Below are positions 3,222-27,700 of a stretch of 64,000 nt of DNA, one piece after another; within the stretch, counting starts at the first letter, position 1; each line of letters begins with the position of its first letter. The DNA is from Bdellovibrionales bacterium (GTDB lineage Bacteria > Bdellovibrionota > Bdellovibrionia > Bdellovibrionales > UBA1609). The notes under the pieces were generated by a model that was not told the origin of the DNA, did no database searches, and was given only the letters and a program-made list of their open reading frames with translations. The translations under genes and the position numbers were made by a program. The stretch lies in assembly GCA_965261545.1 (NCBI GenBank), contig CBDHDF010000007.1:416001-480000 (forward strand). The letters run 5' to 3'.

Positions 3222-5453
3222 ATGAGCCTCATATCGAAGGTAAGGTTGGGAGAGCACACCGCCAGCTCCATTGAGCAGCTCATTGAAGATATGGCAAACG
3301 ATTACAGTAAAAGTGAAAAAGACATTGTGCGACAAGCCTATGCCTTTTCGGAAAAAGCTCATGAAGGACAAATCCGCCGAAGCGGTGAGCCCTATATCCA
3401 GCATCCCCTAGGGGTCTCATCGATACTCGTGGACTTAAGACTAGACACCGCAACAGTGGTGACAGGTCTTCTCCATGACACCATTGAAGACACTGAAGTC
3501 ACTCTTGAGCAAGTCACTAAGCAATTTGGAGAAGTTGTTAGCTCCCTTGTGGATGGTGTCACAAAAATCTCCCAAATGCGCTTTCGAAACACCCATGAAA
3601 AACAGGGAGAAAATATTCGCAAAATGATTGTGGCTATGGGCAAGGACGTGCGAGTGGTCCTCGTTAAACTTGCAGATCGCCTGCACAATATGCGCACACT
3701 GAATCATATGCCCTACAAAAAACAAAGCACCATTGCCAAGGAAACCTTGGATATCTACGCCCCTCTTGCCAGTCGCCTGGGCATCAGTTCCCTTAAAATC
3801 GAGTTGGAAGATTTGGGCTTTCGCTATTCTATGCCAAGCCACTACTACGAACTGGCCCAAAAAATTGATAAAAAGCGCAGGGATCGAGAAAAATATATCG
3901 ACGAAGTCCGAAAGATTCTCTCCAATGAAATTGGCATGCGTACAAAATTTAGATTTGAAGCCCAGGGCAGGCCCAAGCACCTCTACTCTATTTTTAAGAA
4001 AATGCAAATACGCCATGTGGACTACGACCAGGTTTACGACATTCTCGCCTTTCGCATTTGCACGGAAAGTATTCCAGGCTGTTACGAGATTCTGGGAATT
4101 GTACACTCTCTTTGGAAACCCATTCCAGGTCGATTTAAGGATTTTATTGCCATGCCCAAGGCCAATAACTACCAAAGTCTTCACACCACGGTGATAGGGC
4201 CAGGAGGTGAGCGCATTGAAGTTCAAATTCGCACCTACGAAATGCACCGAGTGGCTGAGTGGGGAATTGCAGCCCATTGGAATTATAAAGAAGAGACCCT
4301 CGGAAGCTCTACTGGCAAAGAGGCCATTGATAAATTTAATTGGCTTCGCGAATTGGTCAGCCTGCACCAGCAAACCAATAACTCGGATGAGTTCTTAGAG
4401 GATATTAAAACCGATCTCATGGAGTCAGAAGTTTATGTATTCACTCCCAAGGGAGAAGTCAAAGAATTCCCCGACGGAGCGACTCCCATTGATTTTGCCT
4501 ACTCCATTCATACGGATATTGGCCACACGGTGATGGCAGCAAGAGTCAACGGTAAAATTATTTCCCTTCGCTATCAACTCAAAAACGGTGACACTGTAGA
4601 CATTATCACATCTAAGAACCAATCTCCCTCCAAAGATTGGTTGAAGTACTGTGTCACCTCTAAGGCCAAAAGTAAGATCCGAGCCCATGTCAAAGTAGAG
4701 CAACGGGAACGAGCCCACAAACTTGGTATGGAGTTATTGGAAAAATCCTTTAGAAACCACGGCCTCAACGCTCAAAAGCAGTTAAGGGGGCCTCGCTATG
4801 AAAAATTTCTCAAAGATATCGGTTGCTACCAAGTGGATGATCTCTATGTGCGCGTGGGGTACGGGAAAACGGCTCCAAGGCAAGTTGTGGAAGCCATCCT
4901 CCCCGATCAAAAGGATGACGATAAAACATTGGAAGAAAGCAGTTCATTTATGGAAAGAGCCTTTAAAGTGGCCGCAAACCGCAAAAGGAAAAGCTCTTCC
5001 CTCATTCGCGTGGGAGGCATGGATGAAATACTCGTGCATTATGCCAAATGTTGCAATCCCATACCTGGTGACCCCATCATTGGTTTTATCACCCTTGGTC
5101 GCGGAGTGACCATCCATGGGCTGAACTGCCCAGGGGCCTACGAACTTGATCAAGCACGGCGAATAGATGTGGAGTGGAGCCATGGAAAATCCTCCGAAAC
5201 TGTTGGAAGAATGGTGAGAGTTCGCTTAGTCAGTCATGATATTCCTGGACTTTTAAAGAACATGACAGATACTTTTGTCTCCTGTGGTGTAAATATTCAC
5301 AATGCTCAAATTCGTACAACAAGAGATAAAAAAGCCATTTGCCTCTTTGATGTGGATATTCGCGACACCTCCCACCTCGAAGATGTCATGCAGGCCCTCC
5401 AAAAAATCAAGGGAGTCATTAGCGTCTCAAGATCCAACTCTCGAAGTCATTAG
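3222..5453 (+). CDS. spoT: Bifunctional (p)ppGpp synthetase/hydrolase (Rel/SpoT)
   Basis: HD motif LHDTIED, KLADRLHNMRTL, YQSLHTT, TGS (ATPIDFAY), CCNPIPGD, C-terminal ACT domain. Confidence 0.95.
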   Translation: MSLISKVRLGEHTASSIEQLIEDMANDYSKSEKDIVRQAYAFSEKAHEGQIRRSGEPYIQHPLGVSSILVDLRLDTATVVTGLLHDTIEDTEVTLEQVTKQFGEVVSSLVDGVTKISQMRFRNTHEKQGENIRKMIVAMGKDVRVVLVKLADRLHNMRTLNHMPYKKQSTIAKETLDIYAPLASRLGISSLKIELEDLGFRYSMPSHYYELAQKIDKKRRDREKYIDEVRKILSNEIGMRTKFRFEAQGRPKHLYSIFKKMQIRHVDYDQVYDILAFRICTESIPGCYEILGIVHSLWKPIPGRFKDFIAMPKANNYQSLHTTVIGPGGERIEVQIRTYEMHRVAEWGIAAHWNYKEETLGSSTGKEAIDKFNWLRELVSLHQQTNNSDEFLEDIKTDLMESEVYVFTPKGEVKEFPDGATPIDFAYSIHTDIGHTVMAARVNGKIISLRYQLKNGDTVDIITSKNQSPSKDWLKYCVTSKAKSKIRAHVKVEQRERAHKLGMELLEKSFRNHGLNAQKQLRGPRYEKFLKDIGCYQVDDLYVRVGYGKTAPRQVVEAILPDQKDDDKTLEESSSFMERAFKVAANRKRKSSSLIRVGGMDEILVHYAKCCNPIPGDPIIGFITLGRGVTIHGLNCPGAYELDQARRIDVEWSHGKSSETVGRMVRVRLVSHDIPGLLKNMTDTFVSCGVNIHNAQIRTTRDKKAICLFDVDIRDTSHLEDVMQALQKIKGVISVSRSNSRSH

Positions 5454-7213
5454 TCACCCTCAAGAGTTTCAAGGCCACCATCATTAATGGTCCAACCTCG
5501 CTCTCTCAGGGCGGTTCGCGCCTCCGTGGCACTGCTGTTGTATTTTGAATTACCCCCGTGCAATGGAACATCATCCTGTTGTGAGGTGAGATGAATTCGA
5601 TTGAGCAGGCCGCTATACAACTTTGTGGAAAGAGTCACATCCCTGAATATATCTCTCATAGCAGTGACATGACGGAAGTCCCATTGAGTCATCTCGGGTT
5701 GAGCCGCTTGCGCTTGAATAAACATAAAGTTCATGTTTCTGACGCCGGATGTATCCCAACGGCTGACATCGGGATTGGCGACCACTGTATAGGCAAATAC
5801 ACTATTCATGTTTGTAACGTTGGATGTATCCCAACGACTGACATCGGGATTGGCAACCGCTGCTTCGAAAAACATATTATTCATGTTTGTAACGTTGGAT
5901 GTATCCCAACGACTGACATCGGGGTTGGCGCCCAATGCTTCTGCAAACATACTACTCATGTTTGTAACACTGGATGTATCCCAGCGACTAAGATCGGGAT
6001 TGATGGCCTCTGTTTCTGAAAACATATAACTCATGTTTGTGACACTGGATGTATCCCAATCACTGATATCGAGATTGATGATCTCCGAGACTACAAACAT
6101 GTTGTTCATGTCTGTGACATTAGAAACATTTCCCCCACTCAGTTCTTTGAGGTTAATACAATCAATAAAGGCTTTCTCTAAACTTTTCCATCCCACATCC
6201 CCCAAATCTTTTACAGATATGAATTGAGACGCATGCGTAGTGGCATAGTCGTCGAAATTCCACGCTTCAAGAGTTCCTGAAATGGTGACAGTGTAATCTC
6301 CAGCTTCGACGTAGGTATGAGTGATATCACTGTCATCGTGGGCGGTGACTTCACTGGAGGAACCATCCCCCCAATCCACCTGAAAATTATAATTATACCC
6401 TGGAGGCAAAGGAAGGGCAATCGCTTCGTTGTTGCTAGAAATTCTCCAGACCGAGATAAAGAAAGAAAAACCCCCATCATTAATAGTCCAACCCCGCTCC
6501 TTTAAATTTTGTCGGACACTTTCAGCCCGACTGTCATACTTAAAACCACCCACATTTAAGGTGAAATTTTCCTGGGTGGAGGTTTCAAAGAGTCGATGGA
6601 GTAGGGTATTATAAACCCTTGTGGGAAGAGTGACTTCACTAAACGCTTCATCCATCTCTGTGACAAGGGCGAAGTTCCATCCACTGAAATCAATATTTTT
6701 GATGGAAGTCGCCCCTTTAAACATACGATTCATCTTTGTCATACGAGACACATTGCCCCCAAGAACTTCACGGAGATTACGACAGCCCTCAAAGGCTCCC
6801 TCTAAATTCTTCCATCCCACACTTCCTAAGTCTGTCACAGAAATAAGTTTGTCTTTGCTTCCACCGTTGTTAAAAGACCAAGCTTCAAGCACCCCTGAGA
6901 TAGTGAGGGTGTACTCTCCAGCCTTTGCATAGGTATGGGTGATATCACTATCATCATGGACTGTGATTTCATTGGAGGAACCATCACCCCAATCCACTTG
7001 GAAATTATATTTATATCCTGAACGCAAGGGAAGAGTAATGGACTCGTTGTCGTTGTCAAGGCGATACACAGAGATAAAGGGGGAGGGAGGTGTTTCTTCG
7101 GAAGAGCCACCTTGCCTCTTGCCATCATCCCTACATCCCAAGAAACTCATTATGGCAAAGCAAACGATGAATAGAAATAGAGTCCATTTTTTAAAAATTT
7201 GTAACTGAGCCAA
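5450..7213 (-). CDS. DUF285/BspA-like repeat surface lipoprotein (2 PKD-like + repeat modules)
   Basis: Lipobox FLGC; VDWGDG...HTY PKD-like domains; 25-aa WDTSxVTNMxxMF repeats; GWTINDGG caps. Confidence 0.88.
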   Translation of the reverse strand: MAQLQIFKKWTLFLFIVCFAIMSFLGCRDDGKRQGGSSEETPPSPFISVYRLDNDNESITLPLRSGYKYNFQVDWGDGSSNEITVHDDSDITHTYAKAGEYTLTISGVLEAWSFNNGGSKDKLISVTDLGSVGWKNLEGAFEGCRNLREVLGGNVSRMTKMNRMFKGATSIKNIDFSGWNFALVTEMDEAFSEVTLPTRVYNTLLHRLFETSTQENFTLNVGGFKYDSRAESVRQNLKERGWTINDGGFSFFISVWRISSNNEAIALPLPPGYNYNFQVDWGDGSSSEVTAHDDSDITHTYVEAGDYTVTISGTLEAWNFDDYATTHASQFISVKDLGDVGWKSLEKAFIDCINLKELSGGNVSNVTDMNNMFVVSEIINLDISDWDTSSVTNMSYMFSETEAINPDLSRWDTSSVTNMSSMFAEALGANPDVSRWDTSNVTNMNNMFFEAAVANPDVSRWDTSNVTNMNSVFAYTVVANPDVSRWDTSGVRNMNFMFIQAQAAQPEMTQWDFRHVTAMRDIFRDVTLSTKLYSGLLNRIHLTSQQDDVPLHGGNSKYNSSATEARTALRERGWTINDGGLETLEGD

Positions 7214-10753: not shown

Positions 10754-13123
10754 ATGACATCAACTTTCCTAGTAAAAACAAGTGAAAAAAATAAAAGTTA
10801 TTTATTTACACCTCCTAAGAGGATTTGGAACTTACTGAAAGGAATATCGAAGTTGGTAAGACGAAACCATTTACCTAATTTGATCTCAACTCATTTCAAA
10901 AATAAAAAACATTTTGGTTTTTCTCTTATTGCTATGATGGTGTCTCTCTTTATTATGGGATTTTCTATGGCAGCTCTGATGACGCTAATGGTTCGTCAAG
11001 AAAAAGGAGGAATCGCTTTAAGTCAAAAATTTGACAGCACTCGCTTACAACAAAGTTTGTTGAGCACAATGATGAATTCTGACATATGCACTTGTCACTT
11101 TACTGCCAGTTCAAATTTCCCATTGACTTTAGATACACAGCAATTCGTGGATATTCCAATGCACTCCATTCGGAGCCACTGTGATTTTTCATCCCAAGAT
11201 AATATTCTTGCGAAGGCTGAAACCCTTATACCTGGTAGCAACTTACTGGTGAATACAATCCGGGTGACAAATATTAAATTTACAGGAATATCCAATCGAT
11301 ACTCAGGGAGTCTCAATGTAGAATACAATCAAGAAAATTTGTCTTACCCAATGGAGGCCTCTTCCATTCCTCTTATTTTAATAGTGGACTCAGAGTCAGG
11401 AACCGATGTTGCTCGTCCTATTAAGTCTTGTTGGAAGGCTAATGAAAGCAATCAAGAGATTGAAATCAGCGATAGTGAAAAGGTCCAAAATTTCAACAGA
11501 TTTTATAACGGTTGCATGTTTTTGGATTACTCTTCCGGTGAAGAAAGCGGTGGGCGAACTTTAGTGGGTTGTAATGGCACTGCAAATAATCATCACCCCC
11601 CACATAGTACGGCTTTGGGCTATCAGGCGGGAAAAAACTCATCAAATAGCGGAGACAATACCTATTTAGGTTATCTAGCTGGATCCGCACACTCTGGAAA
11701 TCAAAGCACTTTTGCAGGAAGATATTCAGGGTCGGAGGGTAGGGATGGTTCGGCAAGTACAGCGATTGGTTACCAATCAGGAACGTATTCAGGAAATAGA
11801 AACGTTGCTGTGGGGACGTATGCAGGAGCGCACTCTCAGGGAAATGAAAATGTTTTTATAGGAGCCTCGGTGGGGGGACATGGGCAGGGAAGTCGGAGTG
11901 TGGCTTTGGGTTCTCGGGCGGCGTTAAATATTTCTAATGATAACGTGGTCTTAGGCTCTATAGCTTTGCAAAATGAGGATGAAGGTGCCAATGTTGCAAT
12001 TGGCTACAGGGCTGGTTCGAATTTTGTAAAATATGGTCAGATTTTGATAGGTCACGCTGCTGGTACCCATGCCAGAGGAGATAGAAATATTTTTCTAGGC
12101 TATCAGGCAGGAAATCATAATAACAGTGATACATCTACAAATGATAATATTCTTATGGGTTCCATAGCTCGCTCCCCTAAGAATGGTGATGGTAATCTCT
12201 TTCTAGGGTCCCGAATAGCGTCACCATCGCATGCTCAAGAAAATACATTCGTGGGATCTGAGATCAACTATTACGCAAGGAGGGACGTGAAATACAACAC
12301 AATAGTGGGTGAAAGGACCTCCCGGCATTGGGAGGGTGGTGAAAAAAATGTGATGATAGGTTCCTATGTAGCTTATACATCTTATATTACAAGAGAGGAA
12401 AATTTTAGAAATGTAATTTTGGGTTCGAAGGCTGTATTGTTCAGCGATCTTAGAAATGATAGTATTTACATAGGTCATATGGTCGCGTCTAATAGGAATA
12501 ATCAACTTCGTCATTCTGAGCTCATTTTTGGAATCAAAGATAAGAGATGGTTGACAGGGGATATTTCTTCAACAGGTAATCTCTTTATCAATGGTCAACA
12601 AGTGGCTCTCACAAGTTCCAGAGAGATAAAGAAAAATATTTACCCCATAAAGAATATTAAAAAATATGTTGATGGCATCATACAAGCGCCTTTGTTTACC
12701 TATCATTATAAAGATAAGAGTATGCAACCTCAAAAGACTCGTATGGGATTTATATCTGAAGAACTTCCTGAGTATTTACAGATAAAGAAAAAAGGGCAAC
12801 TTTCTCATCCCGACTGGCCAAGTATTTATGGTTCTTTTTGGGCAAGTATCCAATATATTTATGGTATGTTGCAAAGACTCAAGAAATCCTTCTCTATGAA
12901 TACAAAAAAAATGGTCAGTAATATAAGACATTTCCATGATATACAAAATAGATTTATAGAAGACACAATGGCTTCAAAAAAAGATCTTTTAAAGATAAGA
13001 AATCAGCTCTCTCAGTCATCTCAAGATCTTAAAGCTGCCAAGCTAGAGCTTAGAGAGCTAAAAGCAGGTATAAAGGAAAAATGGAAAGACATCGAAAACA
13101 AATTTCCTCTCAAGAGGGATTGA
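10754..13123 (+). CDS. Prepilin-like N-terminus + Gly-rich fibre repeats + peptidase S74 chaperone domain (paralogue 1)
   Basis: KKHFG|FSLIAMMVSLF hydrophobic helix; CTCHF; xxxGxxAG repeats; TSSREIKKNI...RMGFISEELP; C-terminal coiled coil; start codon uncertain. Confidence 0.78.
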   Translation: MTSTFLVKTSEKNKSYLFTPPKRIWNLLKGISKLVRRNHLPNLISTHFKNKKHFGFSLIAMMVSLFIMGFSMAALMTLMVRQEKGGIALSQKFDSTRLQQSLLSTMMNSDICTCHFTASSNFPLTLDTQQFVDIPMHSIRSHCDFSSQDNILAKAETLIPGSNLLVNTIRVTNIKFTGISNRYSGSLNVEYNQENLSYPMEASSIPLILIVDSESGTDVARPIKSCWKANESNQEIEISDSEKVQNFNRFYNGCMFLDYSSGEESGGRTLVGCNGTANNHHPPHSTALGYQAGKNSSNSGDNTYLGYLAGSAHSGNQSTFAGRYSGSEGRDGSASTAIGYQSGTYSGNRNVAVGTYAGAHSQGNENVFIGASVGGHGQGSRSVALGSRAALNISNDNVVLGSIALQNEDEGANVAIGYRAGSNFVKYGQILIGHAAGTHARGDRNIFLGYQAGNHNNSDTSTNDNILMGSIARSPKNGDGNLFLGSRIASPSHAQENTFVGSEINYYARRDVKYNTIVGERTSRHWEGGEKNVMIGSYVAYTSYITREENFRNVILGSKAVLFSDLRNDSIYIGHMVASNRNNQLRHSELIFGIKDKRWLTGDISSTGNLFINGQQVALTSSREIKKNIYPIKNIKKYVDGIIQAPLFTYHYKDKSMQPQKTRMGFISEELPEYLQIKKKGQLSHPDWPSIYGSFWASIQYIYGMLQRLKKSFSMNTKKMVSNIRHFHDIQNRFIEDTMASKKDLLKIRNQLSQSSQDLKAAKLELRELKAGIKEKWKDIENKFPLKRD

Positions 13124-15312
13124 CTCTTATATCTTCATTGATCGCTGTGGTTATGATTGGTATGACCTCACTTTCTTTGGTATCTATGCAAGTATATCAA
13201 AAAAAGAAAATCTTGATTTTAAAACAGAAGCTTGTCCATATTGGTTTGAAGTCCTTTATTACAAAGGTTTTTTATAGCGGTGCTTGCTCTTGCCATTTTG
13301 ATGATGAAATCAATACCGAGGCCCCCGATGGAAGTCTCTTCTTAAATATGTCAAATACGAATGCATTAGAAAGTATCTCTTTGGAGTCCATAAGAACAGG
13401 GTGCCACTTTGATGGTAATAGAAATATAATTGTAAAAACCAATAGGGAAGTGGATTCTAGTGGAGGACTCGTTGTGAAGAGTATTGTCGTTAAAGACCTC
13501 GTGGCTACAGGAACCTCCGATGCATATTCTGGAAATCTTGTCATAAGTTATACAGAGCCCAGTCAAAAGTTTCTTTTAAAGCCTATTTCTATACCTCTCA
13601 CTTTATCCATTGATACAAGTTCGGGAACTCCAGAGGCTAGACCCATTCAATCTTGTTGGCAAAGGGAAGACGGTAATAATAGTGGTGCTGAAGAAATTGA
13701 AAACAATAGTTTCTCATCGAATAATATGAATTGTGCTCAAGTAACAAGAAGTTCCCACGTTCATAGTGAAAGTAGCCTTTTGAGTTGTGGGGCACAAAAC
13801 CAAGAGAGGAAAACAGGAATAGGATTTAGTGTGGGGGATGCCAACCCTACAGACAACACCAATAATACTACTTATTTGGGACATGCATCTGGTCAATCCG
13901 CATCTTTTAGTGAAGGAGTTTTTTTAGGCTATAAGGCGGGTCGAAGTCTTTCTGGTCTTTATAATACTGCCATTGGTTATCTTGCTGGCAAAAGTACACA
14001 GACTGGAAATCGTAATAATGTGTTGCTAGGGGTGAATATAGGGAATTCTTCCAAGACATCGGAAAGTACTGTAATAGGAACTTATGCAGGGCAATCATCG
14101 ACTAATTCTGCTGTTTTTGTTGGAACAAAAGCCGGTCAACATGTTCGAGAAGGAATCCTTATAGGCCACGAAGCAGGACTGTCACGGTATGGTATTCAGT
14201 CGTCAGATATCCTTATAGGAAACAAAGTAGGAAGATATACCCCGTCTTACGGGCAAAATCTGGTGATTGGTCATCAGGCAGCCATGAGGGGCAATCTTGT
14301 AAGGGCTGTTGGAATCGGTAAGTCCGCTGGCAGTGAAGGCATTAGTAGTTCTATCGTGGTAGGATTTCAGGCAGGCCAAAGAAATAAAAAACACCAAAAC
14401 TCTTTTTTGGGAGGACAATCGGGTGCTAACGTCAGAGATGGAAATTGGAATAGTTTTATTGGTTTCCAATCGGGATTTAACAAGAGGTCTGGAAATAGTT
14501 CTACCTACATTGGGACCTTTGCAGGGTTCAATGACCGATATACCTATGAAAATCTCTGCTTAGGATGGAAGTCTTGTTACCAAATCGCGGGGAATCATAA
14601 TACCATGTTGGGTGCTGGCTCTGGACAGAGTAACCTTGGAGCCCGTAATATATTTATTGGTCATGGAGTGGGTTCTTTACAATCTCATCGTTATCTTAAT
14701 GACACATTCATGATCGGAACTGAAAACCATCAAGAATGGCTGCGTGGAGAAATATCATCAGTTTCAACACTTCTTTTAAATGGCACCCCTATAACCATTC
14801 AAAGTTCGAGAGCTTTGAAGAAAAACATATCTTCTACGAAGAGTCTTAAAAAGTATTTTCAACTTATACTTGAAACTCCTCTTTTCACTTACCAATATAA
14901 AGACCCAAATCTTCAATCTGATAAGGTACGCATGGGTATTATTTCTGAAGAACTTCCTGATGATTTGCAAATTAAAAGAAAGGGAAAACTCTCTCAGCCA
15001 GATTGGCCAAGTATTTATGGAATTTTTGCAGCTAGTATCAAATGGATTTACAACTCTACATTGAATTTGGAAAAAAGTATGTCCACAAAAATGATAACCT
15101 TTGTGGATTTATTGACATCTCTTAAAAATGATATGAAGAGGATGCGAAAAAGGCGTGATAAATGGGTAAAAAATTCTTATGAAACAAAGAGGAGCATCAA
15201 GCAATCTCAAGAGAATATAAGAAAAATAAGAGATGAAATAAAACATGTAAAATCTAATACAGAAAAAAAATTAGGAGAACTTATGGATGATTCACTAATT
15301 ATGGATCCATGA
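13081..15312 (+). CDS. Prepilin-like N-terminus + fibre repeats + S74 domain (paralogue 2)
   Basis: QEG|LTLISSLIAVVMIG; CSCHF; GxxAG repeats; QSSRALKKNI...RMGIISEELP; overlaps paralogue 1. Confidence 0.78.
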   Translation: MERHRKQISSQEGLTLISSLIAVVMIGMTSLSLVSMQVYQKKKILILKQKLVHIGLKSFITKVFYSGACSCHFDDEINTEAPDGSLFLNMSNTNALESISLESIRTGCHFDGNRNIIVKTNREVDSSGGLVVKSIVVKDLVATGTSDAYSGNLVISYTEPSQKFLLKPISIPLTLSIDTSSGTPEARPIQSCWQREDGNNSGAEEIENNSFSSNNMNCAQVTRSSHVHSESSLLSCGAQNQERKTGIGFSVGDANPTDNTNNTTYLGHASGQSASFSEGVFLGYKAGRSLSGLYNTAIGYLAGKSTQTGNRNNVLLGVNIGNSSKTSESTVIGTYAGQSSTNSAVFVGTKAGQHVREGILIGHEAGLSRYGIQSSDILIGNKVGRYTPSYGQNLVIGHQAAMRGNLVRAVGIGKSAGSEGISSSIVVGFQAGQRNKKHQNSFLGGQSGANVRDGNWNSFIGFQSGFNKRSGNSSTYIGTFAGFNDRYTYENLCLGWKSCYQIAGNHNTMLGAGSGQSNLGARNIFIGHGVGSLQSHRYLNDTFMIGTENHQEWLRGEISSVSTLLLNGTPITIQSSRALKKNISSTKSLKKYFQLILETPLFTYQYKDPNLQSDKVRMGIISEELPDDLQIKRKGKLSQPDWPSIYGIFAASIKWIYNSTLNLEKSMSTKMITFVDLLTSLKNDMKRMRKRRDKWVKNSYETKRSIKQSQENIRKIRDEIKHVKSNTEKKLGELMDDSLIMDP

Positions 15313-17639
15313 TAAGGAAAAATATGAATTTAGTAGACACTAAAAGTACCAACAAGAGCATCAACAAGAATATTTGTGGAAGTTATGGTTTTGCCATACC
15401 TTCGATTCTTCTGTCTATTTCTATGATGAGCATATCTATGTTGTCTTTCTTATCCAAAGTCAATATGGGGAATCAAGAGTCTGAGTATTTATCTCATCAA
15501 ACTCAAAGGCAGAGTATTGAGTTCGCTGTCAAGAAAATCATAGAGTCGAATATATGCACTTGTCACTTTGATTCAACACAAAATACAAACATTTCTTCTG
15601 CATCATTAAAAATTAATACCATATCCTTAGAGGATATTCCACTTGAAGCTATAAGAACCGGTTGTGACTTTAATTCGGCCGATAATATTTTAATTCAAGA
15701 GGGGGAGTCCCTAGAAGATGGTTTGGTGATTGATACAATCAAAGTGTCCAATATGAGCCCCAAAGAGGGAAGCAATAAAGTTGTTTTGGGAGATATTATT
15801 ATTGGGTATACAAGCGAAGGCAACACAAGAAATCTCCACCCCTCTGCAATCCCTGTATCTTTTACCATTGATCCAAACTCAGGGTCTAATGAAAGTCGAC
15901 CTATCAAAGAGTGTAAGGTTCCTGACGACGACAACGATGATGAATCAAGTCCATCAGGATTTCCATGTTATTTTGCAGATACAGAGACCGATTGGAGGGG
16001 GCGAACTCTTTTCGGTTGTGGAATATCCATAAATGAGAATCAATCTCGGTTTACAACATCTTTTGGATTTGGGGCTGGGAAGTCTTCAGGTTCTTCTAAC
16101 TCGAACATGGGAAATACTTATTTTGGGTACGAAGCGGGGATGAATCATCAAAGTTCCGAGAGCACAATGATAGGTTATAGAGCGGGAAAAATGTCTGTGA
16201 ACTTAAAGCGTAGCAATCTTATTGGGTATCAAGCTGGAGGAAATGTCATTTCGGGACAGGATCTTCATTTCATTGGAGCCGAGGCCGGTCTAGAAACATT
16301 GAGGGGAAATAGCAATATTTTTATAGGAGCTTCAGCAGGAAGACAGAACCTGGTAGGAAATAAAAATATTTTCTTGGGTTATGAGGCTGGTCGAAATGGA
16401 ACTACTACGCATGAAAATATTTTTATAGGCTATAGAGCGGGGTTTTCAAACACAAAAAATCGAAATGTTTTTATTGGTTCCCAGGCAGGAGAAGCCAATG
16501 TCTTAGGGGAAGATTCTGTGGTTATTGGTTATCGTGCGGGCTATAAAAATCCGCTTATAAACAAGAGTGTTTTTGTGGGAACTTTGTCGGGAAGTGAGAG
16601 TAATGGAGGTGACCGCTCTGTATTCATAGGCTATTCATCTGGCCAAAAGAACGAAGGAAATTATAATACATTTATAGGAAATTACACTGGAGTGGAAAAT
16701 ACGGATGGTGAAGAGAATGTTTTTGTAGGACACAGATCCGGTGAATCCAATAGCAGTGGATCAAAGAATACATTTCTTGGATATTTAGCAGGACACAATA
16801 ACATATCAGGGCTCAGCAATACTGCCATAGGCTGGAAAGCTGGCTATAACAATACCACGGGGAGTTTTAATACCATGATTGGATATCGTGCGGGATATTA
16901 TAGCACAGGAAGTCATAATATATTTATAGGTACAAATGCAGGTGATGATGAAGTATCTTATAGCAATACAAATTCTAAATTTGTTCTGGGCAATACAGAT
17001 GCAAAAAATTGGCTCAAGGGAGACATGACTCCCACTGGAAATCTCTATGTCAATGATCAGCAAGTTGTGATGGCAAGTTCAAGATTTTTAAAGAAAAATA
17101 TTCATCCCGTTGTCCAATTTAGAAAATATTTGAATGACCTCTTAAAAACTCCTCTTTTTACATATCAATATAAAAGCCCGAGAAATCAACCCCACAAAAC
17201 CCGTATAGGGGTTATATCTGAAGAACTTCCTCAAAACTTAAAAATTCAGACGAAGAGTGGACTCCCCCATCCCGATTGGCCCACCGTATATGGTTCTTTT
17301 TGGGCGAGCCTCAAAGCCCTCCATGAAATCAAGAAAGAATTGAAAGAACAATTTCTATCAAAATATAAAGGCTTTTTATCTGAACTTCAATCCATAAAAA
17401 AGAAGCAGCTTCAAGCAATTAAGATATGGACCCATCACAAAAAAGAAATCGCCTCCACAAAGTCTCAATTGCGTCAGATTCATCTCGAAATAGAGCAAAT
17501 TCAAAGAGAGATTTTAAAAATCACAAAGAAGTTTGATGAAGATTGGAAAAATTTGGCGGTAAGACTCTCACCCCCTTCGACGCTATCACCATCACCTCTA
17601 AACCCTCCTACTTCTGACTTGCATCACATCCATCAGTGA
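15309..17639 (+). CDS. Prepilin-like N-terminus + fibre repeats + S74 domain (paralogue 3)
   Basis: YG|FAIPSILLSISMM; CTCHF; NxFIGYxAG repeats; ASSRFLKKNI...RIGVISEELP; ATGA overlap with paralogue 2. Confidence 0.78.
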   Translation: MIRKNMNLVDTKSTNKSINKNICGSYGFAIPSILLSISMMSISMLSFLSKVNMGNQESEYLSHQTQRQSIEFAVKKIIESNICTCHFDSTQNTNISSASLKINTISLEDIPLEAIRTGCDFNSADNILIQEGESLEDGLVIDTIKVSNMSPKEGSNKVVLGDIIIGYTSEGNTRNLHPSAIPVSFTIDPNSGSNESRPIKECKVPDDDNDDESSPSGFPCYFADTETDWRGRTLFGCGISINENQSRFTTSFGFGAGKSSGSSNSNMGNTYFGYEAGMNHQSSESTMIGYRAGKMSVNLKRSNLIGYQAGGNVISGQDLHFIGAEAGLETLRGNSNIFIGASAGRQNLVGNKNIFLGYEAGRNGTTTHENIFIGYRAGFSNTKNRNVFIGSQAGEANVLGEDSVVIGYRAGYKNPLINKSVFVGTLSGSESNGGDRSVFIGYSSGQKNEGNYNTFIGNYTGVENTDGEENVFVGHRSGESNSSGSKNTFLGYLAGHNNISGLSNTAIGWKAGYNNTTGSFNTMIGYRAGYYSTGSHNIFIGTNAGDDEVSYSNTNSKFVLGNTDAKNWLKGDMTPTGNLYVNDQQVVMASSRFLKKNIHPVVQFRKYLNDLLKTPLFTYQYKSPRNQPHKTRIGVISEELPQNLKIQTKSGLPHPDWPTVYGSFWASLKALHEIKKELKEQFLSKYKGFLSELQSIKKKQLQAIKIWTHHKKEIASTKSQLRQIHLEIEQIQREILKITKKFDEDWKNLAVRLSPPSTLSPSPLNPPTSDLHHIHQ

Positions 17640-17661
17640 TGGGTCCCATCGTGTAGTCCCA

Positions 17662-20600
17662 TCAGTGATGGCCTCCATCGCGAATGATCCAGCCCCCTCC
17701 TTCTTGACTCACTAAGTTGGCCCGTGCTGATACGGCACTGGAGTTGTATTGCAATGTGCTCACATCGATAACTTTCTGGATGCTGGTGCTTGTGGGTGCT
17801 CTCTCATCAAAGCTGATTAAAAACTTTGAGTAACTTTCAATGGAAAGTCCCGATGAGAAAAAGAGATTATGGACATTCGTGACATTTGAAAAATCCCACC
17901 TACTTGTGTCTGGGATAGCTTGGGCGGCATAGGAAAAGGCCAGGGACATATCTGTGACACTGGAAGTATCCCAACGACTTGTGTCTGGAGTGGCGACTTG
18001 GGTACCATAAAATAGACCTTTCATATTGGTCACACTGGAGGTGTCCCAATCACTTGTATCTGGGTTCACTTTAAAGGCATAGGAAAACATAAAGGACATA
18101 TTGGTGACATTGGAAGTGTCCCAGCCACTTGTCTCTGGGGTGGCTTTGCGAGCCTCATAAAACATATGCGACATATTGGTCACACCTGATGTGTTTCCCC
18201 CAAAAACACCTTCGAGATTGGAATTGTCTTTAAAGGCTTTAGAGAGATCTTTCCAGCCCATATTTCCGAGGTTGCTCACCTTTAGCAAATTTCTTCTTGA
18301 GGATGAATCATTTTGGAATCCCTCACAAAGGCCCTTGATCGTGACCTTATATTCTCCATGACTTTCGTATTGATGCACCTTATCGGAATCATTAAAAGAT
18401 GTCACCTCACTCGTATTTCCATCTCCCCAATCCACGGTAAAGTTATAATTTAATGATGAACCTGGCTTAAGAGGGAGGGTGAGGGAACGATTACCTAGGA
18501 TTCTCCACTTTGTGATAAAGTAATTAAGGTCGTTAACAATCGATGTATTTATTTGGGCTCGTCCTCCATCCTGACTTGCCTCAATGAAAACCTGTGGGGA
18601 AGATATGTTTTGTAAGTTAAAAATTCCTGAAAATATGTTGCTCTCTGTGCAAGATAGAGATTTTTCCACATTTGGTTTTCCAACAATCACCTGGACAGTT
18701 CCAAGGTTTGCATTGCAAGTTCCATGGACTCTGTAGTTTGCTGCATTGGCTGAAGAAAGAGGATCCATGGATGCGGTATCTATGCTCAACCATGGCACAT
18801 TAATACCAACACTCAAAGATTGACTGTCCACTCCTCCATCCATAATGGACCAACCAGAACTTCTCAAGTTGTGATGGGCCAATAAGGCATGCAAGCTGTA
18901 TTGCAATGTCCCTACATCGATCACTTTCTTAATACTATTGCTTGTAGGTATTCTTTCATTGAATCCTATTAAAAAGTCTGAATAACCCTCCACAGATAAA
19001 CCTGACTCCGAAAAAATACGCTCGATATGGGTCACATTTCGAAAATCCCAAAGGCTTGTATCTGGATCCGCTAGAGTCGCATATTCAAACATGCTATTCA
19101 TCTTTGTAACATGAGGAGTCTTCCAACCACTGGTATTTGGGTCCGCTTGACGGGCATTAAAAAACATATTTGACATATCTGTGACGCTGGAAGTGTCCCA
19201 ACCACTGGTGTTTGGGTCCGCTTGAGCAGCATAAGAAAACATACCTTTCATATTGGTGACACTCGAAGTGTTCCAAGCACTCGTATTTGGATTGGCTCGG
19301 GGAGTGCTAGAAAACATATTTGACATATCTGTAACGCTGGAAGTGTCCCATCCACTGGTATCTGGAGTGGCTTGGGCGGCACGGTAAAACATACCTTTCA
19401 TATTGGTGACACTCGAAGTGTTCCAACCACTGGTATCTAGAACAACCTGACGAGCTTCATAAAACATATTTGACATATTGGTCACACCGGATGTGTTGCC
19501 TCCAGTCAATTGTGTGAGATAATTATTGCCTTGAAAAGCCTGGGATAAATCTTTCCATCCCACACTTCCAAGATTGACAACCTTAATGAGAAAATTATTT
19601 GAAGCAGATGAATCATTCTGAAACCCCTCACAAAGGCCTTTGATAGCGATCTTGTATTTTCCGCCCCTTGTATATCTATGCACTTTATCGGAATCTTCAA
19701 AGGATGTGATGTGACTAACAGCTGTGTTATCCCCCCAGTCCACGATGAAATTGTAGTTCAACCCCGCATCTGATTTCAAGGGAAGTGTGAATTGGTGATT
19801 ACTTGGAAACTGCCACTCTGTGACAAAGCGCTCATTGAGTTCACTGACAAAAGAGGAATTGGCCACGGCACTCACCCCATCCTGACTAACGCTTACAGTG
19901 GCCGATTCAGAAGAGATGTTCCATAAATCAAAACTTCCTGAGAATGTATTGTCTGCAGCACAGGGTACATCTTTCTGAACATTGGGTTCTCCAACAACGA
20001 CTCTAACAACTCCAAGATTTGCATTGCAAGTACCGCTAATTGTGTAGGAATTCGCATTGTATACAGTGATGGGCTGGACCTGAGAATGGAGACTCAACCA
20101 TGGTATAGTCTTGATATCTAGGGCGTCATGACTTAAACCTCCATCTGTGATTCTCCACCCTTTTTGCTTGAGGCGATGGCGAGCTGGCGCCGCACTGTAG
20201 TTGTATTTGACTGTGCCCACATGGATGGACTTATTGAAGCTTGTACTTCTAGGTGGTTTTGCATCCAGCCTTATTAAAAATTTTGAATAATTGGACATGG
20301 ATAAACTGGATGATCGAAACAGGTTATCAAAGTTCTTATTTTCAACAAGACCATTGATGACATTTGTAAAATTCCAACCACTTGTATCTGGATCCGCTTT
20401 TAGGGCACCCCCAAACATATGATCCATGTGGGTGACCTTGGAGGTATCCCAGCCACTGGTATCTGGAGTCGCCTGTAGAGCCCCCGTAAACATATGCTCC
20501 ATATGAATCACCTTGGAGGTATCCCAACCACTGGTATCTGGAGTCGCTTGAGAGGCAGCATAAAACATACCTGACATATCGTTGACGCCGGAAGTATCCC

Positions 20601-21654
20601 AACCACTCGTATCTGGCGTCACGTAATGAGAGTTATTAAACATACTATTCATCTTGGTCACACGGGATGTATTCCCCCCAAAAACCTTGGTGAGAGAGGA
20701 ATTGCTTTGAAAAGCATGGGATAAATCTTTCCACCCCATATTTCCAAGATTGACAACCTTAAATAGATAACCACTTAAAGGTGATACGTTATTTTGAAAC
20801 CCCTCACAAAGTCCCGTTATTGTAATCGTATACTCTCCAGCTTTTTTATACCTATGCGCTTTATCGAGATCTTCAAATGATGTGATGTGACTCACAGACG
20901 TTCTATCTCCCCAATCCACAGTGAAATTATACTTTAACCCCCTATTTGACTTGAGAGGCAGAGTGAATTGAAAATTTTCTGGAAAATTCCATTTTGTGAC
21001 AAAGCGTTTGATATTGTTAGCAATAGAAGAGCTTCTTACAACTGTTGCTCTCTTATTTCCATATTGACCGGTCTCATATTGAGTGACGGCAATGGTAACA
21101 GGATGAGAAGATATATTTTGCACATCAAAGGTTCCTGAAAATGTATTGTTTTCTGCACAGGGTAAAGTTTTTTGTGCATCCGGTTTGCCAATAACAACTC
21201 TGACATTACCGAGGTTCGACTTACAAGTTCCATAAATGGTGTAAGCCCCTGCATTGGATAGAGAAATATCGGGCAATAAAGAACTAATACTCAATGCTAT
21301 TGGATCTGTTGTATCTTCCTTGCTAGATCCCTCAGAGCTGATAACACCACAGTTCAAATTGTTTGTTCCCTCGGATTCTTGTGGTTCTAAAGACTGTGCA
21401 TACCTCTTCCACTGCAAACATATAGGCTCTCCAGCACAATCTTCATCACTTGGTCTTGGTACTTCTGATATAGCTCCACTTGAACTTTCTAAGCCAGAAG
21501 AAGAGTCAGAAGAAGAACCAGAGGAAGAGTCAGCAACACTTGGAAAAGAAAAAAGGAAGGCGGAGACAATAAATAATAGTTTAAATAATTTGAATAATTT
21601 TATTGTATACAACAATTTTATATTTATATTTATATTTATAATATTTATATTCAT
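17662..21654 (-). CDS. Large secreted DUF285/BspA-like protein with 3 Ig-like/PKD-like/repeat modules
   Basis: Signal peptide ending SVA; GGAGG RBS; three copies of GTC...C / FVTKW...VDWGD / WDTSxVTxM repeats / GWxIxDGG. Confidence 0.88.
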   Translation of the reverse strand: MNINIINININIKLLYTIKLFKLFKLLFIVSAFLFSFPSVADSSSGSSSDSSSGLESSSGAISEVPRPSDEDCAGEPICLQWKRYAQSLEPQESEGTNNLNCGVISSEGSSKEDTTDPIALSISSLLPDISLSNAGAYTIYGTCKSNLGNVRVVIGKPDAQKTLPCAENNTFSGTFDVQNISSHPVTIAVTQYETGQYGNKRATVVRSSSIANNIKRFVTKWNFPENFQFTLPLKSNRGLKYNFTVDWGDRTSVSHITSFEDLDKAHRYKKAGEYTITITGLCEGFQNNVSPLSGYLFKVVNLGNMGWKDLSHAFQSNSSLTKVFGGNTSRVTKMNSMFNNSHYVTPDTSGWDTSGVNDMSGMFYAASQATPDTSGWDTSKVIHMEHMFTGALQATPDTSGWDTSKVTHMDHMFGGALKADPDTSGWNFTNVINGLVENKNFDNLFRSSSLSMSNYSKFLIRLDAKPPRSTSFNKSIHVGTVKYNYSAAPARHRLKQKGWRITDGGLSHDALDIKTIPWLSLHSQVQPITVYNANSYTISGTCNANLGVVRVVVGEPNVQKDVPCAADNTFSGSFDLWNISSESATVSVSQDGVSAVANSSFVSELNERFVTEWQFPSNHQFTLPLKSDAGLNYNFIVDWGDNTAVSHITSFEDSDKVHRYTRGGKYKIAIKGLCEGFQNDSSASNNFLIKVVNLGSVGWKDLSQAFQGNNYLTQLTGGNTSGVTNMSNMFYEARQVVLDTSGWNTSSVTNMKGMFYRAAQATPDTSGWDTSSVTDMSNMFSSTPRANPNTSAWNTSSVTNMKGMFSYAAQADPNTSGWDTSSVTDMSNMFFNARQADPNTSGWKTPHVTKMNSMFEYATLADPDTSLWDFRNVTHIERIFSESGLSVEGYSDFLIGFNERIPTSNSIKKVIDVGTLQYSLHALLAHHNLRSSGWSIMDGGVDSQSLSVGINVPWLSIDTASMDPLSSANAANYRVHGTCNANLGTVQVIVGKPNVEKSLSCTESNIFSGIFNLQNISSPQVFIEASQDGGRAQINTSIVNDLNYFITKWRILGNRSLTLPLKPGSSLNYNFTVDWGDGNTSEVTSFNDSDKVHQYESHGEYKVTIKGLCEGFQNDSSSRRNLLKVSNLGNMGWKDLSKAFKDNSNLEGVFGGNTSGVTNMSHMFYEARKATPETSGWDTSNVTNMSFMFSYAFKVNPDTSDWDTSSVTNMKGLFYGTQVATPDTSRWDTSSVTDMSLAFSYAAQAIPDTSRWDFSNVTNVHNLFFSSGLSIESYSKFLISFDERAPTSTSIQKVIDVSTLQYNSSAVSARANLVSQEGGGWIIRDGGHH

Positions 21655-21733
21655 CTTACAACCTCCTCATTTATTCTCATTTGACAAAGCAACTTCTTAC
21701 CACCTTCATTTCCCCAAAAACATCTGAAATGAC

Positions 21734-24700
21734 TCACTTCAACCCCCCATCTGTGATGGACCAACCTTGATTCACTAAATTCTTCCTTGCCAAGGTCGCA
21801 CTGGAATTGTACTGCAGTGAACCCACATCAATAATTTTTTTAATTTTAGTGCTTATGGGTGATCCTTGATTGAATCTGATTAAAAATTTTGAATAATTGT
21901 CAGTGGATAAACCCGATGATGAAAAAATAGAAGTGAGATTGATGGCATTTCGAAATTCCCAAGCGGACACATCTGGATTGGCTTGACTAGCACCTTTAAA
22001 AACTTCTTTCATCTTTGTCACACGAGAAGTATTCCACCTTTCAGTATTCGGTTTGGCTTTAGTGGCATTATAAAACATACGTGATATATTGGTGAGTGAG
22101 TAAGTATTCCAAACTGTATATGGGTTGGCTTGGGTGGCATGGGCAAACATATATGACATATCTTTAACGCTGAAAGTATTCCAACGATAGGTCGCTGGAG
22201 TGGCTTCATAAGCTTCATAAAACATATATGACATATTGGTGACATTGGAAGTATTCCAAGCACGGGTATCCGGCTTGGCCTTCCAGGACCCCTTAAACAT
22301 GGCCTCCATGCTTTTGACATTGGAGGTGTCCCAACCACTGGTATCTGGGACGGCCTTTCTAGAAGCATAAAACATATAGCTCATGTTCTTGACCCTAGAG
22401 GTATTTCCCCCAAGAACTTTGGTGAGAAACACATTCTTTGAAAAGGCATAGGACAGATTCTCCCAGCCCATATCTCCAAGATTGATCACCTCCCTTAGAT
22501 ACAAAGAGGAATGTATGTTACTCTGAAGTCCCTCACACCTACCTGTAATGGTAATTATATAATCTCCAGCCTCAGAATAGACGTGCTTCTTGTCGGCATC
22601 ACCAAAAGATGTCACTCTACTGGCAACGCTTCCATCTCCCCAGTCTACGGTAAAATCATAATCGATTCCTGTTTTCTTCTTAAGAGGAAGAACAAGACGG
22701 TGCCCTGCTGGGATTTTCCATTTTGTGACAAAGCGATTGATTCCATTGGCAACAGAGGCATTGTCCACAATGAAGCCGCCCTTTTGACTAAGATGGATCT
22801 TTGCAGGGTGAGAAGATACATTTTCTAGATCAAGGGCTCCTGAAAATGTGTTGTCTCTCCTACAAGGTAAATTTTTCTCCACATTGGGCTCCCCAACAAC
22901 AACTTTGACAGGTCCAGAATTGGAATGGCAAGTTCCATGGATGGGGTAAGTTCCAGCGTTGGCCAGAGTTATGGTAAGTGGTTCATTGACTTTCAACCAC
23001 GATATGTCGAGGCTTGGTAGCCTGCTGTTTAAGCCTCCATCAGTGATAGTCCAACCCTTAGCTATTAAACTGGCACGAGCCGATACAGCACTGGAACTAT
23101 ATTTCAACGAACCTACATTCACCTTTTTTTGAGCACTGACGCTTGTAGGTGTCTTCTCATTGAGTCTTATGAGAAATCTTGAATAATTCTCAATAGATAA
23201 ACCTGACTTACCAGAGAGATAACTAAACATCCTTTCAATGGAGTGCCACGTGACATTGGTAAAATCCCAGTCCCTTGTATCTGGATCCGTTTGCGGAGCA
23301 TACACAAACATATAATTCATAGAGACCACCTTGGAAACATCCCAGCCCCTTGTATCCACGGTAGCTTGAGTGGCACCATAAAACATATTTTCCATACTCG
23401 TCACATTGGATGTATTCCCTCCAGAAACTTTTGTGAGATTGCGATTTTCGTAAAAAGCCCTAGATAAGTCTTTCCACCCCATATCCCCAAGGTTGACAAC
23501 CTCATTGAGATAGGGTCCGGAGTTCACTCCAAGAACACGATTGTTATTATGAAACCCCTCGCAAAGACCCGTGATTGTGATCGTATACTGCCTGGCTTCC
23601 GCATATGTATGCACCTTGTCGGTATCATTAAAAGATGTCACTCTACTGACAGAGCTTCCATCTCCCCAATCCACCTTGAAGTCATAATTGAGTCCTGAGT
23701 GTGATTTAAGGGGAAGAGTGAATCGATAATTGGCCGGAAAAGTCCATTTTGTTATAAAACGCTTCATCTTATTTGCAATGGATAAGTTATCTAAGACAGG
23801 TCCTCTCCTCTGACGTATTCTCACTCTGATGGGATGGGAAGATATATTTCGTACATCAAAATTCCCTGAAAAAGTGTTGTCTGCTAAACAAGGTAAATCT
23901 TTTTCCACATTTGGCTCTCCCACAACAACCCTGACAGCCCCAAAATCTTCATTGCAGAGTCCACTGATTGTGTAGGCCCCCGCATTGGCGAAGACAAGGG
24001 GAGAATGTGGTGTATCCATCGTCAGCAATGGTCTACCGAGATACTCTATTCGACCTAATACACCCCCATCGACAATGGTCCAACCTTTAGATACCAAACG
24101 AGCACGAGCCGACACAGCGCTGGAGTTGTACTGCAACCTATTTACATTGATCTCTTTTTGAATGTTAGGATTCCTTGGTGGTTTTCTATCGAGGCTTATT
24201 AAAAATTTTGAATAATGATCAACAGACAAACCTGATAACAAAAACAAACTCTTGAGACTGTTGTAACGATTGTCAATATTAGAATCGGGAACATAGGTGA
24301 CATTTGTAAAATCCCATCCACCTGTATCTGGGTTGGCTTGGCTGGCACCATAAAATAAACCTATCATATTGGTGACCTTGGAAGTATCCCAACCACTTGT
24401 ATTTGGGTTGGCTTGACGAGCTTTATGAAACATATTTAACATATTGGTCACATTGGAAGTATTCCATTGGCTTGTATCTGAATTTGCTTGAGAAGCATAA
24501 AAGAACATACCTCCCATATTGGTGACTTTGGAAGTATCCCAACCACTTGTATTTGGGTTCGCTCGGAAAGCATTCTCAAACATACTTTTCATGTTTGTGA
24601 CGCTGGACGTATTCCAATCACTTGTGTCGGGATTTGCTTGACGGGTATAGGCAAACATACTTTCCATGTTTGTGACACTGGAGGTATCCCAATCACTTGT

Positions 24701-27700
24701 GTCAGGGTTCGCTCGGAAAGCATTCTTAAACATACTTTTCATGTTTGTGACACTGGAAGTATTCCAATCACTTGTCTCGGGATTTGCTTGAGGGGTATAG
24801 GCAAACATACCTTCCATATTTTTAACCTTGGAAGTGTCCCAGCCACTTATGTCTGGTGTGACTTTGTTAGAATCATAAAACATATGACTCATATTGGTGA
24901 CACCCGATGTATTTCCTTTGTTGAGAAAGGTCTCAAGCTTATCATTATTTTCAAAAGCACGAGATAGATCTTTCCACTGCATACTTCCAAGGTTGGAAAC
25001 CTCTAGTAGATAGTTATTTGAAGGTGACGAATTATTTTGAAATCCCTCAGAGAGACCCTTCATCGTGATTGTATACTCTCCAGCATCAGTATATGTATGA
25101 GTCTTGTCCACATCATCAAAAGATGTAACTTTGCTGGTGTTTCCATCTCCCCACTCCACAATAAAATTATAATTGAGTCCTGTATCTGATTTAAGAGGAA
25201 GAATGAATTTATAATTAGATGGGAAAGACCATTTTGTTATAAAGTATTCCCTGCCTTCATTGGAGATAGAAGCACTTTTCACAGTACGTCCCTCACTCTG
25301 ACTGACTTGAATATTGGTGGGATTGGAAGATATGCTCTGTAGGTCAAAAGTGACTGAGAATGTATTCTCCACTCCACAAAATACATCCTTTTGTATATTT
25401 GGCTCCCCAACAACAACTTTGACAATTTCAGGGTTTGAGTTACAAGTTCCACTGACTGTGTAAGCCCCTATATTTAAAAATCCGATCGGAGCGAGTTCAT
25501 CCATTTTCAACCACGGAGCATCGAGACCTGGCCATGGATCAGTGGACAAGCCTCCATCCGTGATAACCCAACCCTTAGCGATTAAGCTGTTGCGAGCTGA
25601 GAAAGCAGCGGAGTGGAACTTTACACCAACATGAATACGTTTATGATGAATGGATTTTTTAGGTATCTTTTCGTTGAGTCTTATAAGAAATCTTGAATAA
25701 TTTTCTATAGATAAACCTGAATTGTGAGATAGATTTCCAAACATATCTCCAAGTTGAGTGATTTTTTTAAAATCCCAATGACGGGTATCTGGATTGGCTT
25801 GGGAGGCTCCAAAAAACATATTTCTCATACTGGTCACATTGGCAGTCTCCCAACCGCTTGTATCTGGCATGGCCTTGCTGGCACCATAAAACATATTTTC
25901 CATATGTGTAACACCTGATGTATTTCCTCCAGAAACTCTTCCGAGGTTATTATTACCTTGAAAGGCATAGGATAGGTCCTTCCATCCCATATCTCCGAGT
26001 TTGACCACCTCCCTGAGATACCCTTTGGAGCTCAGTCTATGAACTTCATTATTTTGGAATCCTTCACAAACCCCCTTGATCGTGACCGTATATTCTCCAG
26101 CCTTTGCATATGTATGGACTTTGTCGCTATCACTAAAAGATGTGATTTCACTGGTTCCTCCATCCCCCCAATCCACAATAAAATTATAATTGAGCCCTGC
26201 ATCTGGTTTAAGTGGAAGAACGAATCGATAGTTTTTCGGAAAATTCCATTTTGTGATAAAGTGTTCGATTGTATTCGCAACAGAGGTACTTCTTACTGTA
26301 TGGCCTCCCTCCTGACTGACTTCGATCATGACAGGATTGGAAAAGAGGTCTTTTAAATCAAAGACCCCTACAAATGTGTTGTCCCCTCTGCAAGGTAAAT
26401 ATTTTGCTATATTTGGCTTAATAAAGACTCTAACGCCTCTAGGATTTGAGTTACAAGTTCCACGGATGGTGTAGGCTCTGGCATTTTCTGAAGTGATGAC
26501 GGCCAATGGCATATCAATTTTTAACCAAGGCACGCCAAGGCTTGGCAATTGACTGTTCAAACCTCCATCAATGATGGTCCACCCCTTAGTTACTAAGCTT
26601 TTCCGGGCCAATCCAGCACTGGATTGGTACTGTAAAGAGCCTACGTCAATCTTTTTCTGAACGTTGGTGCTTGTAGGCGCCTTGTTATTAAGTCTTATAA
26701 GAAATTTTGAATAACTTTCAATGGATAAACCTGATATAGCTGGTCTATTTCCAAACATTTTTGCGATAGAATTTGAGGAGGTGAGGTTTGTAAAATTCCA
26801 GCCACTTGTACCTGGACTTGCGCTCGTGGCATAAATAAACATATGGCCCATGTCGGTCACATTGGAAGTATCCCAACCCCTTGTATCTGGAACCACTCGC
26901 TCTGCATTGTAAAACATATACTTCATGTCCGTCACATGGGATGTATTTCCACCGAAAAATTTGGTGAGATTATCGTTATCTCGAAAAGCGTAGGATAGAT
27001 CTTTCCATCCCATATCTCCAAGGTTCATCACCTCATATAGATTTCTTCCAGAACTCACCCAAGAAAGATTATTGTCATTCTGAAATCCCTCGCAAACCCC
27101 CTTGATCGTGACCTTATACTCTCCGGCGTCAGCATATGTATGCACCTTATCGAGGTCATCAAAAGATGTAATTCTACTGACAGGGCTTCCATCTCCCCAG
27201 TTCACAGTAAAATTATATTTGAGCCCTGAACCTTTCTTAATAGGCAGAGTGAATCGATAATTGGCCGAAAAATGCCACTTTGTTATAAAATGATCCATCT
27301 TATTTGCAATGGATGAATTCTCTACAGCGGAACCACCCTTCTGACTTGCCCGAACGATCACAGGATGGGAGGACACATTGCGCACATCAAAAATCCCTGA
27401 AAACGTATTATTTGATGAGCAAGGCAAATCTTTCTCCACATTTGGTTCTCCCACAACAACCCTGACAACTCCAAGACTTCCATTGCAAGTTCCACTAATG
27501 GCATAGTCCTTTGCATTGGAAGAAACAATGGCAAATGGCGGCGTATCAATCGTCAGCCACGGCACATTGAAACTCAACACTTGGCTGTCCAAGCCCCCAT
27601 CGAGGATCGTCCAGCCTTTAGTTATTAAGCTTTGCCGGGCCAACACGGCACTGGAGTTGTATTGCAACCTATGCACATTGATTTCTTTCTGAATTCGAGA

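Follow-up and report, generated by a model that had tools for sequence, protein, structure and literature searches.

Three overlapping genes from a Bdellovibrionales genome encode paralogous proteins in which a pilin-type N-terminus is followed by a neck, a glycine-repeat fibre, an S74-type domain and a coiled coil. Their sequences suggest that the products A, B and C form a 1:1:1 S74-folded trimeric fibre, which would act as a type IV pilus-tip adhesin. The probability of this reading is put at roughly 0.55. The pilin-S74 fusion itself is already known, and the new element here is the comparative case for a heterotrimer.

Results

Organisation of the three genes

The three genes lie on the plus strand of the window, the whole stretch of 64,000 nucleotides that was analysed. 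Gene A (10754..13123, class A) codes for 789 aa as called, gene B (13081..15312) for 743 aa and gene C (15309..17639) for 776 aa. A and B overlap by 43 nt, and B and C by 4 nt (ATGA). The pairwise identity of the three proteins is 33-35%. The first-pass annotation had read three overlapping frames of one shared architecture here, and all of them were found in place. The same holds for the motifs that it listed. The leaders G/FSLIA, G/LTLIS and G/FAIPS, all without Glu5, the cysteine pattern C-x-C-H-F, R-x-x-C-x-F and RPI-x-x-C, the sequences SSREIK, SSRALK and SSRFLK, the G[FIV]ISEELP motif and a coiled coil at the C-terminus can all be recognised. The region 10789-17900 is spanned with zero differences by one contig assembled from a public run, which may be the window's own source. 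Positions 10778-10819 belong to a repeat with copies elsewhere, and the true start of A is therefore probably downstream of the called 10754, where in-frame TTG codons occur. Promoter and terminator scans gave matches at chance level only, and NCBIfam assigned 0 families to the three proteins.

Flanking the cassette are five large genes for DUF285-type surface proteins (window 5450-7213 and 17662-34185); four of them were scanned and all are DUF285. By motif, about 31 ORFs of this type are found in the genome, three of them directly upstream of one cassette on contig C2. A gene for an MbnB/TglH/ChrH-family enzyme followed by DUF2063 occupies window 35805-37362 and is a possible peptide-modification locus. 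Transposase genes are located at window 48519-53668, and repeated ORF families make up about 21% of the genome. The gene order of C10:655000-668000 recurs with differences on contig C5, which is possibly a second haplotype.

Four cassettes in one genome

The genome (G000; 4.3 Mb, 96.8% complete) shares its family with G311 and G354. It carries four A-B-C cassettes, namely the studied locus, C7:320089-327097, C2:618860-626256 and C2:632223-639169. All 12 cassette genes are whole. The 560 repeated-ORF blocks, which occupy 924 kb of the genome, interrupt none of them, and loss, gain or homogenisation of a gene is seen in none of the four cassettes. Each gene is nearest to the same-position gene of the other cassettes. 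In each of the five regions compared, identity tracks position, and in nearly all comparisons it is higher within a class than between classes; a single divergent A head breaks the rule. For the N-terminal helix it is 45-70% within a class versus 17-45% between classes, and for the coiled coil 25-61% versus 7-24%. Between the studied cassette and its nearest copy, dN/dS stays below 1 in all 15 region pairs and amounts to 0.16-0.25 in the S74 region. The cassette genes are under purifying selection. In a FastTree analysis of the pilin and S74 regions, three proteins of another assembly (P0014, P0126 and P0123) grouped with A, B and C respectively, their co-location being read solely from the same listed longest contig of 114,398 bases. 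P0034 and P0035, both listed at 91,099, grouped with A and B. Duplication of whole cassettes alone would produce position-wise similarity, whatever the chains do.

The pilin-type N-terminus

The mature pilin module of A (10919..11440; residues 56-229, after Gly55) consists of a 51-residue helix and a four-stranded sheet. It was modelled with a pLDDT of 83 in a lollipop shape, with a helix at 2-52 and strands at 110-121, 127-136, 148-156 and 166-172, so that a helix of about 50 residues stands against an antiparallel sheet. The leader of B ends at Gly13 and that of C at Gly27, and their pilin modules lie at 13120-13665 and 15390-15923. Gly precedes the hydrophobic tract (position -1) in 12 of 12 cassette genes, and Glu5 occurs in 0 of 12. 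N_methyl scored above the cut-off in all four A genes; B and C were below it or unmatched. Gly14 is present in all four A chains, as in PilA of the same genome. A leader could be recognised in 31 of the 42 related ORFs listed, and Glu5 is present in 25 of those 31. In type IV pilins this residue is "often, but not always" present, in the available text of PMC10191384.

Structure comparison with VIA-align over 48,161 chains placed type IV pilins and pseudopilins in 12 of the best 50 rows. The scores were weak (Z 3.0-4.0) and tied with non-pilins, and none reached Z 5; among the pilin matches were PilB (Z 4.0, rmsd 4.2, 98 aligned), EpsJ (3.9), XcpV (3.9) and GspK (3.8). Foldseek at E 0.001 returned nothing for the pilin module, and a further search with the pilin alignment brought back only proteins of the same genome. 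The pilin-type N-terminus proposed by the first-pass annotation thus draws its support from N_methyl, the helix-plus-sheet model and the Glu5-bearing relatives, the structural match being weak. We regard the N-terminus as very probably pilin-type.

Nine single genes of the genome (L014, L015, L016, L053-L057 and L060) carry the same pilin module with the fibre absent. Their tails are short and mostly Cys-rich. Five of the nine seem to be cut short or have no leader, and insertion sequences are often found next to them.

Neck and repeat fibre

Behind the pilin module there is a linker of 13-43 residues, then a two-cysteine neck, then rungs of 16-17 residues. The neck of A (11513..11572; Cys254-Cys273, ending in GRTLVGC) is kept across the whole family. 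The repeat fibre of A (11609..12532) has about 19 rungs and is predicted to be a beta-solenoid. Over the 19 aligned rung columns of the 12 cassette genes, Gly is present in 226 of 228 cells and insertions are found in loops only. With a rung profile derived from these same 12 genes, 17-19 rungs were counted in each, with about 33% identity between positions. The same scan gave 18/18/18 for the ENA triplet, 15/16/15 for the G365 triplet, 14-15 for six G322 genes, 6-40 across 27 single genes and 6-41 across 13 genes of an array in G357. For proteins listed on contigs of equal length, the numbers agree within a contig and differ between contigs (26/25, 20/21, 18/18 and 18/20). Six unlinked single genes of G363, at 43-70% identity, also have 20-21 rungs. 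Therefore, matched counts do not need linkage.

The modelled solenoid was compared with known structures. CbpF, the head of a trimeric autotransporter, was aligned over 199 residues with Z 9.9 and rmsd 7.8, a score level with those of unrelated beta-helices (Z 9-10.7). An assignment to the YadA_head-type repeat did not hold, as the unit has 16-17 residues and Pfam YadA_head (PF05658) matched none of the A, B and C proteins. PF05658 was also absent among 25 listed of the 46 families matched by 54 homologues. In the Atlas, the repeat region is closest to unnamed, partly viral clusters (0.96-0.97).

The S74-type domain and the coiled coil

The S74-type domain of A (Ser621, Lys626) and its coiled coil (693-783) are encoded at 12614..13102. 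The corresponding pairs are Ser575/Lys580 in B (from 14803) and Ser590/Lys595 in C (from 17076). A whole-protein scan with PF13884 gave 20.6 bits for A, 18.4 for B and 20.6 for C, against a cut-off of 22. A scan of the genome gave 12 matches, all at or above the cut-off, and they are exactly the 12 cassette genes. Among 54 homologues, 49 were matched at E 0.01; PF26696 is precomputed on some of them. Ser and Lys occur at the domain start with a spacing of five residues, the coiled coil (helix 693-783) lies behind them, and the Ser, Ser and Lys of SSRxLK are unchanged in 54 of 54 homologues. The first-pass annotation had compared this motif with SDxRLK. The Ser-to-Lys spacing agrees, and the comparison fails at Asp after the catalytic Ser (SDxxxK), which is replaced by Ser in all 54, and at Arg, which lies one place earlier. 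SD is found in relatives that share this neck and these repeats. In MYRF the dyad is Ser578 and Lys583, and Asp579 is listed as conserved (PMC3742443, available text). One relative (G310) has the same neck and repeats together with a canonical SDRRLK (PF13884 E 2.6e-15), which ties the SSRxLK variant to true S74 domains. The S74-type C-terminus is thus supported by the PF13884 matches, with the scores of A, B and C below the cut-off when taken alone, and by the SDRRLK relative. An S74-folded trimer is highly probable, and self-cleavage by the SS variant appears likely from the conserved residues.

The coiled coil is about 90 residues long and carries class-specific Trp positions; its charge patterns gave no clear pairing rule. 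Complex prediction with the C-terminal thirds of A, B and C scored 0.50 and one control 0.44, which speaks neither for nor against the heterotrimer. The full-length monomer model is poor (pLDDT 60, below 50 over much of the S74 region). Foldseek at E 0.001 returned nothing for it, and the PDB sequence searches gave coiled-coil and chance matches only.

Triplets, pairs, arrays and single genes among relatives

An S74-region profile found matches in 15 of 390 genomes of the class. PF13884 found them in 56 of 109 family genomes, and 20 loci were examined, chosen mainly where listed matches are adjacent. Triplets are present in five relatives (G365, G354, G326, G323 and G322). That of G365 is overlapping, and the same triplet is split over two contigs in G354, with position-wise identities of 77/65/65%. 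In G326 and G323 prepilin-SDxRLK triplets are found. The order in G322 is X-Y-Z-X-Y-Z, with 73/61/68% position-wise versus 42-46% otherwise. Glu5 is missing from exactly one chain of three in G322 and G323, and from none in G326 and G365. In the S74 tree, separate clades were obtained for SS (100), G000 with ENA (95), G322 (99) and G326 (89; one MAT-like gene inside), 9 rows being left out, among which were the two "c" genes of G322 and two members of the ENA triplet. The placement of triplets in separate clades points to repeated triplication.

Most relatives are single genes. Pairs are present in G329, G340 and G296, and G357 has an array of 16 related ORFs over 65 kb (L021-L024). In this array the pilin modules are near-identical (70-100%), the fibres have 6-41 rungs and the upstream frames are long and repetitive. 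The first-pass annotation had asked whether homologous loci come in threes. Triplets do recur, and singles, pairs and the 16-ORF array exist beside them; three genes are therefore not required family-wide. No relative was confirmed in genome contigs (first scan), metagenome contigs or viral contigs. A comparison of the gene C protein with 40 relatives gave just weak repeat matches, in 4 of them.

The single pilin-S74 genes of G363 and G358 (L030-L038) overlap a downstream gene whose product has 360-540 aa and a signal-like start. Hint-type domains were seen in two of four such partners scanned. This pairing recalls the CofB-CofJ and TcpB-TcpF cargo pairs.

Pilus and secretion machinery

The genome has pilA, pilB/pilT/pilC, pilD, pilM-Q, pieces of a Tad system and a T2SS operon that includes pseudopilins of its own, gene names beyond family matches being a reading of the sequences. 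pilD and pilM-Q are at G000:C7:486273-492961 (L059), 6-13 kb beyond the right end of the window. The cassettes are not beside pilus genes, the nearest being about 53 kb away. TIGR02532 matched at 6 places in the genome, which are pilA, a pilA fragment and four T2SS pseudopilins. PilX_N matched GspK only, and the T2SS carries its own GspG-K set. As the matches of both families are confined to pilA and the T2SS, these scans revealed no ordinary set of type IVa minor pilins beyond the T2SS operon, and divergent pilins can be missed in this way. PilM, PilT and GspD matches were obtained in 15 of 15 genomes tested, so their presence cannot separate a type IVa pilus from a T2SS. The GspK search was patchy, and the PilY1 search was uninformative because its controls were silent. 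At G000:C2:885054-890016 a secretin gene looks split by insertion sequences, so that one Tad-type system may be broken.

Discussion

Proposed assembly

The following assembly is proposed for the three chains. The prepilin peptidase PilD would cut each leader after Gly, and the N-terminal helix would keep the chain anchored in the inner membrane. One A, one B and one C would then be gathered by their class-specific coiled coils and S74 domains, and about 19 rungs would zip in register, as suggested by the matched rung numbers and the conservation of the classes. The Ser/Lys pair would subsequently remove the chaperone and the coiled coil; this step is less sure because Asp is lost. The pilin heads, each joined to the fibre by a linker of 13-43 residues, would fill the three leading, staggered places in a filament that is most likely a type IVa pilus. 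Addition of PilA beneath them would drive the fibre through the secretin to the outside. The four cassettes would be four interchangeable tips with different loops. An adhesin role is inferred by analogy with the MAT fibres of Bdellovibrio and the modular pilins.

If the N-terminus is pilin-type and the S74-folded trimer forms, a heterotrimer is likely. The first-pass annotation had raised it from the three coupled genes. Four position-classed cassettes, matched rungs and recurring triplets now speak for it, and the variable gene number in relatives speaks against it. A set of three Glu5-less chains also differs from known tip complexes, each of which has one such subunit as its cap (PMC10191384, available text). 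Tethering through the fibre could make the Glu5 salt bridges unnecessary in these chains. A stronger version is possible, although we hold it only tentatively. The heterotrimer would then be obligate, with three pilins starting the type IVa pilus in lieu of a minor-pilin set and each giving one strand, and such cassettes would have arisen repeatedly in predatory bacteria because a three-fold fibre docks on three non-equivalent positions of a helical filament.

Alternative explanations

Each gene may instead produce its own homotrimeric pilin-fibre. The cassette would then go back to an old tandem triplication, copied later as a unit, and would supply alternative tips. Single-gene relatives must indeed be homotrimers if they trimerise at all, arrays and pairs occur among the relatives, and the S74 proteins in the available text of PMC10769870 and PMC3742443 are homotrimers. 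The shared rung number of the unlinked G363 genes is compatible with this as well. However, the gene content of the four cassettes has stayed intact, the classes persist in another assembly and triplets recur in separate clades. The agreement of rung numbers within equal-length contigs, with differences between contigs, and the class-specific Trp positions of the coiled coil are also on the side of the heterotrimer. We therefore consider separate homotrimers unlikely.

The other two alternatives concern the two ends of the chains. The Glu5-less helix could be an inner-membrane anchor or export handle only, so that the fibre stays periplasmic or exits by the T2SS pseudopilus rather than the type IVa pilus. 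The absence of Glu5 from all cassette genes, the weak structural match to pilins, the complete T2SS in the genome and the lack of linkage to pilus genes fit this explanation. Nevertheless, it is quite improbable, given the invariant Gly at -1, Gly14 in the four A chains as in PilA, Glu5 in most relatives, and a T2SS equipped with GspG-K of its own, whereas scans of the genome turned up no type IVa minor pilins besides the cassette proteins. At the opposite end, the trimer may sit at the tip with an SSRxLK motif that no longer cuts, so that the S74 domain and coiled coil remain as the outer end. The change of Asp to Ser and the Arg shift throughout the clade, the low Pfam scores and a coiled coil of about 90 residues under purifying selection are in line with lost cleavage. 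Since both catalytic positions are unchanged in every homologue, it is regarded as very unlikely.

Comparison with known systems

The first-pass annotation named no described system with this fusion. The pilin-S74 architecture is already catalogued in the survey of Raynaud 2021 (PMC8179133). There the IPR012902-IPR030392 architecture is listed for 29 proteins, and 8 more proteins have YadA-head repeats in between (4, 3 and 1). The cassette proteins resemble these modular pilins in combining a prepilin motif with an S74 domain. In its available text the survey lists the fusion and reads the module as "peptidase activity", with no argument on trimers, cassettes or chain classes. Unlike its entries, the cassette genes have SSRxLK and lack Glu5. 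In the Atlas, N_methyl plus S74 clusters were found in Melainabacteria and serve as leads; whole-protein rows score below 0.9. A search of the open-access literature, with subscription journals outside its scope, found no study of the pilin-S74 fusion or of a heterotrimeric S74 fibre.

The MAT fibres of Bdellovibrio (PMC10769870, available text) come from the same order and are long fibres with a terminal S74 chaperone, and they too are a multi-gene family of likely adhesins. They begin with a signal peptide and a conserved beta-rich N-terminal domain, whereas the cassette N-terminus is a pilin module; this comparison was made by architecture rather than against MAT sequences. MAT-like genes with a different start are present in relatives (L068 and L076). 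The type IVb proteins CofB and TcpB (PMC9565799 and PMC10191384, available text) are similar in having a pilin module, a flexible linker and a beta-rich C-terminus that trimerises at the tip. In TcpB, a 13-residue linker lets the three-fold tip of a homotrimer sit on three staggered pilin positions (PMC9565799). CofB and TcpB differ from the proposed cassette fibre in being homotrimers, short, without S74 and encoded in the pilus operon. A sequence relation to them was not seen: there was no PDB match at E 1, and the cassette C-terminus is made of repeats and S74. KilLMN of Myxococcus (PMC12075869, available text) also belong to a predatory lineage and form four paralogous three-gene clusters with predicted heterotrimeric tips. 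They differ in belonging to a Tad pilus and in building the outer end from one chain only, and neither S74 nor tail fibre is mentioned in that text. All three cassette chains, compared with KilLMN by gene organisation only, would build the fibre.

Implications

How adhesion fibres and type IV pili work together in Bdellovibrio is described as an open matter (Caulton 2024, PMC10769870, available text). The cassette genes unite an adhesion fibre and a type IV pilin in one polypeptide, and they offer a concrete pilus-tip candidate for a genome in which scans for ordinary type IVa minor pilins found none. The S74-folded phage tailspikes, MYRF and the Bdellovibrio MATs are built from three identical chains. 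If the proposed assembly is true, a natural 1:1:1 fibre would reveal a way for an S74 chaperone to incorporate the selection of chains.
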